Below are positions 1,414 through 4,980 of a stretch of 6,089 bases of DNA, in pieces. The DNA comes from a virus (Duplodnaviria; Heunggongvirae; Uroviricota; Caudoviricetes). The notes beneath the pieces were generated by a model. The model searched no databases and was not told the DNA's origin. It saw only the letters and a list, made by a program, of their open reading frames with translations. Position numbers and translations under genes: made by a program. Each line of letters starts with the position of its first letter. Positions within the stretch are counted from its first letter, which is position 1. Where the stretch lies: positions 1-6,089 of the IMG/VR virus record IMGVR_UViG_2684622669_000003. One strand, written 5' to 3'.

Positions 1414-1428
1414 TTACCGTTGAGGTAA
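1414..1428. promoter_or_regulatory. operator palindrome TTACC-GTTGA-GGTAA (leftward operator site 1)
   Basis: Perfect inverted repeat TTACC-N5-GGTAA overlapping the -10 and start region of the putative leftward promoter; member of a six-copy motif family confined to intergenic DNA. Confidence 0.55.
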
Positions 1429-1456
1429 TGATTATGCGTATTTGGTTTGATGTCAA
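1428..1456 (-). promoter_or_regulatory. putative leftward early promoter (pL-like): -35 TTGACA, 17-bp spacer, -10 AATCAT, read on the minus strand
   Basis: Minus-strand TTGACA (plus 1451-1456) and AATCAT (plus 1428-1433) with 17-bp spacing, about 30 bp upstream of the ATG at 1394; flanked by two operator palindromes. Confidence 0.4.
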
Positions 1457-1475
1457 TAGATATGAGTTAAAAAAA

Positions 1476-1490
1476 TTACCCGATAGGTAA
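1476..1490. promoter_or_regulatory. operator palindrome TTACC-CGATA-GGTAA (leftward operator site 2)
   Basis: Perfect TTACC-N5-GGTAA inverted repeat with an a/t flank extending it to 17 bp, located upstream of the -35 of the pL-like promoter. Confidence 0.55.
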
Positions 1491-2187: not shown

Positions 2188-2202
2188 TTACCCAACAGGT
2201 AA
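2188..2202. promoter_or_regulatory. operator palindrome TTACC-CAACA-GGTAA (rightward/divergent operator site 1), followed by a degenerate copy at 2205-2219 (gcACC-ACATA-GGTaa)
   Basis: Perfect TTACC-N5-GGTAA in the repressor/cro intergenic region; the adjacent degenerate site keeps the ACC-N5-GGT core. Confidence 0.55.
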
Positions 2203-2225
2203 ATGCACCACATAGGTAACTATCC

Positions 2226-2254
2226 TTGATTTTTGTTACCTTATGGGTGAATAT
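2226..2254 (+). promoter_or_regulatory. putative rightward early promoter (pR-like): -35 TTGATT, 17-bp spacer, weak -10 GAATAT (exact -10 uncertain)
   Basis: TTGATT at 2226-2231; AT-rich -10 candidates at 2249-2260; about 30 bp upstream of the cro-like start at 2287; an operator palindrome occupies the spacer. Confidence 0.4.
2236..2250. promoter_or_regulatory. operator palindrome TTACC-TTATG-GGTGA (rightward operator site, one mismatch)
   Basis: Imperfect member of the TTACC-N5-GGTAA family, between the -35 and -10 of the pR-like promoter. Confidence 0.5.
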
Positions 2255-2517: not shown

Positions 2518-2539
2518 TATCCAGCCACAACCCTCTGTA

Positions 2540-2561
2540 GACCGCCACTCGGCGGTCTTTT
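2540..2561 (+). terminator. rho-independent terminator after the cro-like gene (tR1-like position)
   Basis: Hairpin GACCGCC-ACTC-GGCGGTC followed by TTTT, 23 bp after the stop at 2517. A weaker AT-rich hairpin (AACCA-AATC-TGGTT) and a T9 run follow at 2593-2619. Confidence 0.6.
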
Positions 2562-2884: not shown

Positions 2885-3736
2885 ATGAGCAGACATGCAA
2901 CAGATTGGGCCTGGGAGACAGATCCGGGTAGCTCGTCATTAAAGCTCATACTGCTCTCGATGGCTGACAGAGCCGATGAATATAACCTCTGCTACCCCAG
3001 CATAGAACGCCTCGTTAAAGACACTTGCCTGAATAAAAAAACCGTACAGGCCGGGCTTATATCGCTCATGAAAATGGGGCTTATTTCAGATACCGGAGAG
3101 AGAAAGGGAGCGACGAAAAGAGTGCGGGTTTTCTCTCTTAATATAACCAAAAACGGGAACATTAAAGGCAACCGGGAAGGGAGCAATGAACCCGAAAACG
3201 GTAATGTTCCCGAAAACGGTAATGTTCCCGAAAACGGTAATGTTCCCGAAAACGGGAATATACCCAAAAACGGGATGTTGAATGATCCCAAAAACGGGAT
3301 GTTGAATGATCCCAAAAACGGGATCCAGAACCAGTCATATAACCAGTCATTTAACCAAGAGAGGGAGAGCAGGACAAAAGCCGGGGATTCTGTGCCTCAT
3401 GACCCCGGCGCAAACAACGCCGTGATGAATAACTTTGTTCCTCCTGGTGGGCCAGGGCAATTAGGCAAATTTGTCATGCATGAACAATGGCAGCCATCAG
3501 ATGACTTTCTTCGGAAAAGCTCATTGCAGGGGATCTACCTGGACAGTCTGCCAACGGCACAGGAACTTGCAGAGTTCAGAATTTACTGGATGGCTGAGGG
3601 TAAGGCATACCATCAGGCACAGTGGGAGCAGAAGCTGGCAAGGCGGCTGCAGATTAGCAGACAGAAGCAATCAACATTACCTGATAACAACGTTCCGCAC
3701 TGGAACAGCCCTGAAGCATGGGAGGATTTCTTGTGA
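2885..3736 (+). CDS. phage replication initiation protein (functional analogue of lambda O): N-terminal HTH DNA-binding domain, repeat-encoded linker, C-terminal domain resembling DnaT-like replication proteins
   Basis: Complete ORF in the track. GGAG RBS 7 nt upstream of the ATG. N-terminal region (LKLILLSMADRADEYNLCYPSIERLVKDTCLNKKTVQAGLISLMKMGLIS) fits the winged-HTH pattern of phage replication initiators. Linker is encoded by tandem DNA repeats (NGNVPE x4, NGMLNDPK x2). Stop overlaps the start of the P-like gene. Domain naming is from recollection. Confidence 0.7.
   Translation: MSRHATDWAWETDPGSSSLKLILLSMADRADEYNLCYPSIERLVKDTCLNKKTVQAGLISLMKMGLISDTGERKGATKRVRVFSLNITKNGNIKGNREGSNEPENGNVPENGNVPENGNVPENGNIPKNGMLNDPKNGMLNDPKNGIQNQSYNQSFNQERESRTKAGDSVPHDPGANNAVMNNFVPPGGPGQLGKFVMHEQWQPSDDFLRKSSLQGIYLDSLPTAQELAEFRIYWMAEGKAYHQAQWEQKLARRLQISRQKQSTLPDNNVPHWNSPEAWEDFL
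3191..3324. repeat. iteron-like direct repeat array: 7 units with core CCC(G/A)AAAACGG, spaced 18,18,18,18,24,24 bp; followed by a 12-bp direct repeat pair CCAGTCAT(A/T)TAA at 3331-3354
   Basis: Seen directly: cccgaaaacggtaatgtt x3, cccgaaaacgggaatata, cccaaaaacgggatgttgaatgat x2, cccaaaaacgggat. Located in the linker-coding part of the initiator gene, the arrangement known for ori-lambda inside gene O. Confidence 0.65.
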
Positions 3737-4518
3737 ACAACGTTTTTACCGCGATACAAAACCGTGACGGAGAAGCCCTTTCTCGCATGTCAGGTTATGA
3801 GCATCAGTACACTAACAATGACAACGTGGTGAACATGTCAGCAGAGAGGCTTGTTGATGCCCTTTTCAAACAGTTGAAACAACTGTTTCCGGCGGCAGTG
3901 GTAACCAACCTGAAGACGCCAGAGCAGGAAGTTGCTGCAAAACAGCAGTGGATTGCTGCGTTTGCCGAAGGGGGGATCCGAACCCGTGAACAGGTTTCTG
4001 CTGGTATGCGCCACGCCCGCGCCAGTGAATCTCCGTTCTGGCCGTCGCCAGGGCAATTCATCAAGTGGTGTAAAGACAGCAAGATGGTTCTTGGCGTCAC
4101 CATTGACGATGTGATGGCGGAGTTTCACCGGTACAGCAAGGAAAAAAGTTTATATCCTGGTGGTCCCGAAAGATTCCCGTGGCGGCATCCGGTTATGTAC
4201 TGGGTCGTATGTGATACCCGCCGTGCAATGTATCAGCGCCAGCTTAGCGAGATTGAGGTTGAGAAACACGCGCGCAGGCTGCTCGATGATTGGGCGAAAA
4301 AGGTGGCTTCCGGACAGCAGATACCCGAGCCGGTGATCAGCATACAGGCAAAGCCAGAGCCCATGAGTACACCTCCGGACACAGGGAGAGACGTTTACCA
4401 TCCATCAGGGCGAAGTTTCGGGTGCATGCCTAACGCCGCCACCCTTGGGGGAATAACACCAGCGCAGTGGCTGATGGAGGAATACAGGCGGGGAAAGGCG
4501 GCAGGATTTATCAAGTAA
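3733..4518 (+). CDS. P: lambda P-like replication protein (DnaB helicase loader)
   Basis: Translation aligns by eye with recalled lambda P (FPA...EQV.AGMR.AR....PF.PSPGQF..WC, YP....PW....YW, IPEPV). Start chosen at GTG 3733 (GGAGG 7 nt upstream, GTGA overlap with the initiator stop, as in lambda O/P); an alternative ATG at 3718 gives the track ORF 3718..4518. Confidence 0.8.
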   Translation: MNNVFTAIQNRDGEALSRMSGYEHQYTNNDNVVNMSAERLVDALFKQLKQLFPAAVVTNLKTPEQEVAAKQQWIAAFAEGGIRTREQVSAGMRHARASESPFWPSPGQFIKWCKDSKMVLGVTIDDVMAEFHRYSKEKSLYPGGPERFPWRHPVMYWVVCDTRRAMYQRQLSEIEVEKHARRLLDDWAKKVASGQQIPEPVISIQAKPEPMSTPPDTGRDVYHPSGRSFGCMPNAATLGGITPAQWLMEEYRRGKAAGFIK

Positions 4519-4523
4519 TACCA

Positions 4524-4543
4524 GCGCGATAGCGCATTTTTTT
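4524..4543 (+). terminator. possible weak terminator after the P-like gene (short GC stem GCGC-GATA-GCGC followed by T7)
   Basis: Only a 4-5 bp stem, but all GC and followed by seven T residues; 6 bp after the P-like stop. Confidence 0.25.
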
Positions 4544-4555
4544 ACGCCTCGATAA

Positions 4556-4570
4556 TTACCTAATGGGTAA
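4556..4570. promoter_or_regulatory. operator palindrome TTACC-TAATG-GGTAA (third locus, site 1)
   Basis: Perfect TTACC-N5-GGTAA with A/T flanks, upstream of the -35 of the promoter preceding the ORF at 4636. Confidence 0.5.
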
Positions 4571-4589
4571 CAAAATATTCTAAATTCTA

Positions 4590-4618
4590 TTGATTTCATG
4601 TCTTATGTGGTTTTTAAT
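4590..4618 (+). promoter_or_regulatory. putative sigma70 promoter: -35 TTGATT, 17-bp spacer, -10 TTTAAT, driving the post-replication gene block
   Basis: TTGATT at 4590-4595 and TTTAAT at 4613-4618, about 18 bp upstream of the ATG at 4636; same -35 hexamer as the pR-like promoter. Confidence 0.45.
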
Positions 4619-4632
4619 TACCTAGGAGGTAA
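4618..4632. promoter_or_regulatory. operator palindrome TTACC-TAGGA-GGTAA (third locus, site 2) overlapping the -10, transcription start and RBS
   Basis: Perfect TTACC-N5-GGTAA; the GGAGG RBS of the ORF at 4636 lies inside the palindrome. Confidence 0.5.
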
Positions 4633-4635
4633 ATC

Positions 4636-4980
4636 ATGAGAAAACAGATACAGGCTCTTGGTCGACTCAAAACAGGCCAGATGAACAAAACAGAATCTGC
4701 GTATTGCCAGCACCTTGAGCTGCGTAAACGTGCAGGAGAAATCGTCTGGTATCGATTTGAGGGTATCAAGCTGCGGTTAGCTGACAACACGTTCTATACG
4801 CCCGATTTTGCTGTGATGCTCGCCACCGGCGAGATGGAACTGCACGAAGTGAAAGGTTTCTGGACCGACGACGCCAGGGTGAAAACCAAAGTCGCCGCAG
4901 ATCAGTATCCGTTCCGAATCATCGGGGTAACGGTTAAACCAAAGAAAGCAGGTGGTGGCTGGAGCATCGAAGAGTTCTGA
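4636..4980 (+). CDS. DUF1064-like small phage protein with PD-(D/E)xK nuclease-fold signature, 114 aa
   Basis: Complete ORF in the track with a strong RBS (AGGAGG). Motif YTPDF ... ELHEVKG fits a PD-x(n)-(D/E)xK catalytic core; the DUF1064 label is from recollection of similar prophage ORFs. Confidence 0.6.
   Translation: MRKQIQALGRLKTGQMNKTESAYCQHLELRKRAGEIVWYRFEGIKLRLADNTFYTPDFAVMLATGEMELHEVKGFWTDDARVKTKVAADQYPFRIIGVTVKPKKAGGGWSIEEF

Follow-up and report, generated by a model that had tools for sequence, protein, structure and literature searches.

Positions 4519–4635 of the window, by which we mean the whole 6,089-base stretch of DNA analysed, probably form the boundary between two early rightward transcription units, where a weak terminator would close the first unit and a promoter repressed by the phage repressor, Rep, would serve a distal operon. 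Control by Rep of this predicted distal early operon, which begins with a junction resolvase gene, is well supported by comparison. Binding of Rep at the palindromes, activity of the promoter, looping of the DNA and efficiency of the terminator are what we infer from the arrangement.

The window is 96–97% identical, over 85–93% of its length, to the Escherichia phages phiv142-3, PAS61 and phiV10. It comes from a prophage of the phiV10/epsilon15 type, a temperate podophage of the genus Uetakevirus (the epsilon15 group). A leftward operon holds the gene for a PD-(D/E)XK exonuclease (122–943) together with two small ORFs, and the repressor gene, of the Rep type by its match to PDB 5D50, lies on the minus strand at 1548–2132. 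The rightward cro-like gene (2287–2517) is followed by a 66-amino-acid ORF, a DnaT/O-like gene (2885–3736) and a lambda-P-type replication gene (3718–4518, plus strand; Pfam PF06992, Phage_lambda_P, E 1e-56), which is the final gene of the replication unit 5′ of the cassette. First in the distal unit is a DUF1064 gene (4636–4980, plus strand), which matched both Pfam PF06356 (E 3e-7) and PHROG 190, “Holliday junction resolvase” (E 2e-42); its product is probably a Holliday-junction-resolving nuclease. A 187-amino-acid Eae-like ORF and the start of an Ea22-like ORF lie 3′ of it. Within the DnaT/O-like gene, tandem repeats at 3191–3357 (18 nt × 4.6, 24 nt × 2.6 and 12 nt × 2.4) encode a repetitive peptide with NGNVPE repeats and may be the iterons of an origin, as in lambda O. 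An Rfam search of the whole window gave no matches.

The cassette at 4519–4635 opens, on the plus strand, with a hairpin (4524–4543) made of GCGC at 4524–4527, a GATA loop and GCGC at 4532–4535, followed by a single A and seven T residues at 4537–4543. The predicted upstream operator, TTACCTAATGGGTAA, occupies 4556–4570, with its centre ∼62 bp 5′ of the predicted start site. A −35-like hexamer, TTGATT (4590–4595, plus strand), agrees with TTGACA at four of six positions, and a −10-like hexamer, TTTAAT (4613–4618, plus strand), stands after a 17-nt spacer and agrees with TATAAT at five of six. Adjoining the −10 is the motif ATGTGGTT (4605–4612, plus strand), whose TRTGG is kept in all seven phages compared. 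The predicted downstream operator, TTACCTAGGAGGTAA (4618–4632), covers the last base of the −10, the predicted start site and the Shine-Dalgarno sequence GGAGG (4625–4629), which falls inside the palindrome; the ATG follows at 4636. With a start about 7 nt past the −10, the 5′ end of the transcript is predicted at ∼4624–4626, leaving a leader of just 11–12 nt with the ribosome-binding site at its extreme 5′ end. A repeat search found an 18-nt direct repeat, TAATTACC..GGTAA, at a spacing of 62 bp. The earlier note on this DNA had placed an operator pair and TTGATT-17-TTTAAT between the P-like gene and the DUF1064 ORF, with one palindrome over the −10, start and ribosome-binding site, and all of these elements are where it put them.

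The palindromes are far too frequent to be chance matches. Allowing up to one mismatch, TTACC-N5-GGTAA occurs six times in the window against an expectation of 0.07, and none of 200 shuffles of the window reached six. Both palindromes of the distal cassette are free of mismatches, and their half-sites are identical to those of the sites flanking the repressor gene, where the remaining four (1414, 1476, 2188 and 2236) are found. Within the window the palindrome is confined to regulatory gaps.

We compared the gap in the window with its counterparts in phiV10, BUCT554, Tyrion, epsilon15, SPC32H and the Klebsiella phage BUCT711, whose Rep proteins are, respectively, 100, 75, 78, 42, 42 and 45% identical to that of the window. 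In all six relatives the hairpin and its T-run are present, both palindromes are free of mismatches and the −35 has TTGA; in each, the −10 ends at the operator and an ATG lies 3–5 nt past it. All seven phages space the two operators 62 bp apart at this site; at the leftward promoter of the immunity region, PL, six of them do so and the seventh has 63 bp. In a comparison of five lineages, identity is 100% at all 20 half-site positions, against 49% in the operator centres, 83% in the −35 (with TTGA invariant), 80% in the −10 and 64–71% in the spacers. Fixed half-sites with free centres have the appearance of a protein footprint rather than of general conservation. A candidate reading in which the cassette is more conserved than its neighbours was rejected: between the window and SPC32H the whole cassette is 76% identical and the adjoining DUF1064 gene 85%. 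Since the cassette is the less conserved of the two, only its functional positions seem to have been held.

The genes flanking the cassette vary. On its 5′ side is either a P-type gene or a DnaT-type gene alone, and on its 3′ side either DUF1064 or a RuvC-like resolvase, the latter in epsilon15, in Tyrion (by the annotation of its record) and in a Serratia prophage, where it has an IGIDPG motif. Two unrelated resolvase folds, DUF1064 (PHROG 190) and RuvC-like, thus share the first-gene slot in a non-orthologous replacement; in the sequence pieces used here the slot is at 8988–9452 of L004 (epsilon15) and begins at 11329 of L205 (reverse complement). The same gap of the Serratia prophage, whose Rep is 54% identical, contains a terminator, TTGCAA-17-AATGAT, two operators and the RuvC-like gene. 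One of its operators lies within the spacer and the other overlaps the −10 and start, and its core has A at −11. Judged by its sequence, the design recurs there although the geometry differs.

Larger collections gave the same association between cassette and repressor. A phage collection contained the cassette in 32 records, all from phages that also have a Rep homologue, and Rep alone led to 78 viral contigs, in 73 of which the cassette is present in the orientation expected. A scan with the geometry as pattern found at least 120 viral loci, many with one copy per strand ∼3 kb apart, corresponding to PL and the distal promoter. The IMG/VR set was picked by the motif itself and is therefore uninformative on half-site conservation, the invariance being imposed by the search pattern. 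The junction was found in 530 of 5,426 complete E. coli genomes.

Taken as hexamers, TTGATT-17-TTTAAT matches the consensus at 9 of 12 positions, with T at −7 and T instead of A at −11. Pairs scoring 9/12 number six in the window and 7.4 ± 2.7 in shuffles; because the hexamers alone are at chance level, we did not count their promoter score as evidence. Sigma-70 normally requires A at −11. A promoter scan skipped the pair because TTTAAT lacks an A at its second position, and since A is missing from −11 in the E. coli clade, promoter activity may be low or may call for a helper. The Salmonella relatives admit an alternative −10, TAAATT, behind an 18-nt spacer. What points to a sigma-70 promoter at 4590–4618 is conservation and a layout shared with PL. 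We also considered a leftward promoter-like pair, AAGACA-16-TAGAAT (4604–4577), and rejected it: phiV10 has TAGATC as this −10, and pairs of such quality occur about as often as chance predicts.

The motif next to the −10 was seen elsewhere. On the transcribed strand of phiV10, ATRTGGTT occurs six times against 1.3 expected, and five of the six copies are intergenic, 30–50 nt 3′ of an operator (at the head, tail-fibre, lysis and replication genes and at the distal promoter). Its positions are 4605–4612 in the window, 3311, 20924, 24742, 33138 and 35119 in phiV10, and 2991, 24754 and 35956 in the epsilon15 record. ATRTGGTT could be a promoter element or the binding site of some factor.

The hairpin at 4524–4543 had been proposed as a possible weak terminator. 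Hairpin and T-run are conserved (seven of seven phages compared and 72 of 74 unique IMG/VR cassettes, with an invariant stem), and the phiV10 record labels the homologous hairpin a putative terminator, the sole feature marked in that gap. Against this, the stem has four G-C pairs closed by a tetraloop, short of the minimum of five pairs demanded by our terminator scan, and the 47-nt fold of −8.4 kcal/mol has a z of only −1.6. We regard it as a putative weak intrinsic-terminator-like element.

The closest parallel to the distal cassette within the window is PL. The PL cassette (1414–1490, minus strand) consists of operators at 1476–1490 and 1414–1428, TTGACA at 1456–1451 and AATCAT at 1433–1428. 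Base for base, both cassettes run operator, 19 nt, −35, 17 nt, −10, and in both the second operator begins with the final T of the −10. The distal cassette is thus the geometric twin of PL, not of the rightward promoter beside the repressor gene. The right operator region for the cro-like gene (2188–2254, plus strand) has sites at 2188–2202, 2205–2219 (two mismatches) and 2236–2250 (one mismatch), and its promoter, TTGATT-17-GAATAT (2226–2254, plus strand), carries one operator between −35 and −10 and two further upstream. The earlier description of the distal promoter as nearly identical to those flanking the repressor gene therefore fits its −35, which matches that of the rightward promoter, but not the rest of it, and its geometry is that of PL.

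A fourth cassette was found beyond the strong terminator 3′ of the cro-like gene (2539–2558, plus strand). It occupies 2573–2634 on the plus strand, 5′ of the replication genes, and comprises a degenerate operator (2573–2587), TTGATC (2605–2610), 18 nt and CAAAAT (2629–2634). In the window the operator has two mismatches, as against one in phiV10 and Tyrion. The −10 of epsilon15 and BUCT554 again leads into TTACC. The fourth cassette is of the same type as PL and the distal cassette, with operators that have decayed here and are near-intact in BUCT554 and phiV10.

The earlier framing, in lambda terms, falls short as to the repressor. The window repressor is 100% identical to that of phiV10 and can be aligned end to end with SPC32H Rep (PDB 5D50, E 4e-42, 42% identity); by this match it is a homologue of SPC32H Rep, not of lambda CI. 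SPC32H Rep, as outlined in a paper that cites Kim et al. 2016, is a tetramer in which different dimers supply the DNA-binding pairs for palindromic sites, and the antirepressor Ant is described as disassembling that tetramer. For the C-terminal domain of SPC32H Rep a looping-type tetramerisation fold has been proposed, and by a summary of the SPC32H work a single Rep tetramer is enough for repression.

Homologues with as little as 42% identity share both the recognition helix NLVNRW and the operator half-sites, and the variants NLVSRW and NLISRW of E. coli and Serratia prophages are still paired with TTACC-N5-GGTAA. The Rep-based locus search yielded only repressors that are 100% identical, and among the Rep homologues and loci examined we found no relative with an altered half-site or a heteroimmune repressor. 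Because recognition helix and half-sites are kept at 42% identity, immunity specificity may lie elsewhere; within the genus it may reside, for instance, in the operator centres or in the pairing with the antirepressor.

Operators of this kind are spread over the whole genome. The complete phiV10 genome has 14 sites with at most one mismatch, where about one would be expected anywhere. They lie 5′ of the terminase, head, tail-fibre, lysis and integrase genes and also at PL, at OR and in the two rightward cassettes, and epsilon15 has sites at places matching this set. If terS starts at 121, all 14 fall in intergenic DNA, which makes up 6.7% of the genome; under the RefSeq start at 41, the figure is 12 of 14, the terminase pair at 87 and 105 then lying inside the coding sequence. 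The presence of operators at 87–119 suggests that the RefSeq start is probably too far upstream, and in epsilon15, too, the site lies 5′ of terS, which favours a start at 121 in phiV10. One further stretch of phiV10, at 20484–20524 and 3′ of p24, is a long perfect hairpin, GGAGTGCTTATAT...ATATAAGCACTCC, with an exact palindrome (20497–20511) at its top; it may serve as a terminator or a composite site instead of being a plain operator.

Part of this set is already annotated. The epsilon15 RefSeq record, NC_004775, labels seven sites as protein_bind “repressor”, and one of them, 35906–35922, aligns with 4555–4571 of the window and so with the upstream palindrome at 4556–4570. Other labels lie before terS, gp3 and the tail-fibre gene and in OL. 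The site over the −10 and ribosome-binding site is unlabelled in that record, as is any promoter. As far as we could establish, these labels are predictions. Our literature search, outside of which lay the primary papers on SPC32H and epsilon15, returned no transcription or binding data for the distal site, no operator map and no description of a third promoter. The claim of a third operator-guarded promoter thus stands as to the site, which is conserved, but not as to its being singular: the window has the fourth cassette and phiV10 has 14 sites, and the distal pair reads as one of many.

These data suggest how the junction might work. A weak intrinsic terminator would close the replication unit and insulate the distal promoter from it. 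That promoter would serve an early operon encoding the junction-resolving nuclease and then the Eae- and Ea22-like genes, an operon that in phiV10 would extend as far as a putative regulator, with which the genome map ends; p55 of phiV10, the last gene of the operon, gave no Pfam or PDB matches. In a lysogen, Rep on the downstream operator (4618–4632) would occlude the −10 and the start site. Because the upstream operator is exactly 62 bp away, about six helical turns, both sites should lie on the same face of the DNA. The upstream operator most likely adds cooperativity, and one Rep tetramer, with its two DNA-binding pairs, could hold both sites and loop out the −35 region. The antirepressor of SPC32H is reportedly controlled by LexA. 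On induction, an antirepressor would split the Rep tetramers and free the distal promoter at the same time as PL, PR and the remaining promoters marked by operators. With a freed promoter of their own, the distal genes would be independent of read-through or antitermination, in keeping with our having seen no indication that they rely on read-through.

Another reading is that the palindromes are roadblocks, in which Rep halts polymerase leaking past the weak terminator and the distal genes are expressed by read-through once Rep has been removed. Mycobacteriophage L5 stoperators act in this way. The sites do lie directly 3′ of a weak terminator, the −10 is without A at −11, the hexamers score no better than chance, and operator sites are dispersed through short intergenic gaps genome-wide, all of which this reading would accommodate. 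However, TTGA, the 17-nt spacer and the position of the −10 are conserved in the layout of PL, which with its consensus TTGACA must be a promoter, and a conserved terminator just 5′ would oppose expression by read-through. In addition, the Serratia variant retains a promoter-like core with A at −11, and L5 stoperators are asymmetric and orientation-dependent, in contrast to the palindromes here. We therefore think a pure roadblock unlikely.

Still less probable, in our judgement, is that the pair acts chiefly at a distance, as an anchor 2.3 kb from OR that steadies Rep on OR/OL through DNA looping and exerts no local control. There are parallels for such looping in lambda OL-OR, in OD of TP901-1 and in the flanking sites of phage 186, and the tetrameric state of Rep, its proposed looping tetramerisation fold and the several operator clusters inside 3.2 kb would all suit an anchor. 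But an anchor needs neither exact placement over the −10, start and ribosome-binding site nor a conserved −35 and −10 with an ATG directly 3′ in every phage; sites of this kind are also found in front of late operons at distances of tens of kb, and a single tetramer is said, in the summary of the SPC32H work, to suffice for repression. That the cassette is a relic or recombination linker, a duplicated PL control region kept for module exchange and with no present regulatory role, is the most doubtful reading of all: it sits at a mosaic joint whose flanking genes differ between phages, it has the layout of PL and the fourth cassette (2573–2634) shows that such operators can decay, yet a relic should decay evenly, whereas half-sites are 100% and centres 49% identical, only functional positions have been held (76% for the cassette against 85% for the DUF1064 gene, window versus SPC32H), and the Serratia prophage arrives at an equal design by a different layout.

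We thus favour a Rep-repressed promoter behind a weak terminator. Extended to the genome, the operator set raises the possibility, which we put forward tentatively and think rather less likely than its opposite, that in Uetakevirus prophages one tetrameric repressor silences every transcription unit, late genes included, without an antitermination cascade. At PL and at the distal promoter, one Rep tetramer would then clamp both operators across a loop of ∼62 bp, the antirepressor would free all units together by splitting the tetramers, and a phage factor acting at ATRTGGTT could compensate for the defective −10.

Roughly a tenth of complete E. coli genomes carry the junction, and its workings therefore bear on the silencing of a very common type of prophage. 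These phages depart from the lambda plan in that a control region guarded by the repressor belongs to every early unit and apparently to every late one, an organisation that would explain how a single antirepressor can switch on the whole genome. That the first gene of the distal unit encodes a junction-cutting nuclease is a plausible reason for tight control by two operators. It is also of practical use that the record of phiV10, the nearest relative of the window with good annotation, is without operator or promoter features, and that these are transferable from epsilon15.

As to known systems, the feature is real, ordinary for its genus and largely known; it has been annotated in part and is not a new kind of system. 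The Salmonella phage epsilon15 (NC_004775) has the same palindrome, ATTACC-N5-GGTAAT, in the same gap between replication and resolvase genes, with the hairpin and the promoter-like core. Its predicted repressor sites are credited to Kropinski et al. 2007. The epsilon15 record differs in marking the upstream site only, and that of phiV10, which is much closer to the window, in marking the terminator only. SPC32H has a Rep homologue and the same type of cassette at the corresponding place; the antirepressor gene lies outside this window. We take the source for its Rep-Ant lysis-lysogeny switch to be Kim & Ryu 2013 and Kim et al. 2016 (PDB 5D50 and 5D4Z).

With lambda and P22 and their CI or C2 repressors, the window shares operators that stand on either side of the repressor gene and overlap the divergent early promoters, and a cro-like gene after the rightward promoter. 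Lambda has OL and OR only and reaches its distal early genes through N antitermination. Here, by contrast, each unit has its own terminator and operator-guarded promoter, and at least four operator-bearing regions lie in the window, which departs from the two-operator immunity plan of lambda; the earlier statement that the arrangement is absent from canonical lambda was correct by textbook knowledge. Rep itself is a tetramer from another family than the lambda repressor, and it is taken out by an antirepressor instead of by cleavage.

Repressors with dispersed operators are known: C1 of P1, gp71 of L5 with its stoperators, CI of coliphage 186 at pB and CI of TP901-1 at OD. These systems resemble the present one in having one immunity repressor with many genomic sites, some of them at promoters well away from the immunity region. 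They differ in that neither the proteins nor the site sequences are related to those found here, and in P1 the prophage is a plasmid and the immunity circuit more elaborate. Nor are the sites stoperators of the L5 type, which lie in transcribed DNA away from promoters, since the half-sites are perfectly palindromic and bracket a promoter-like core. It is the fixed 62-bp operator pair bracketing a promoter that is specific to this phage group.
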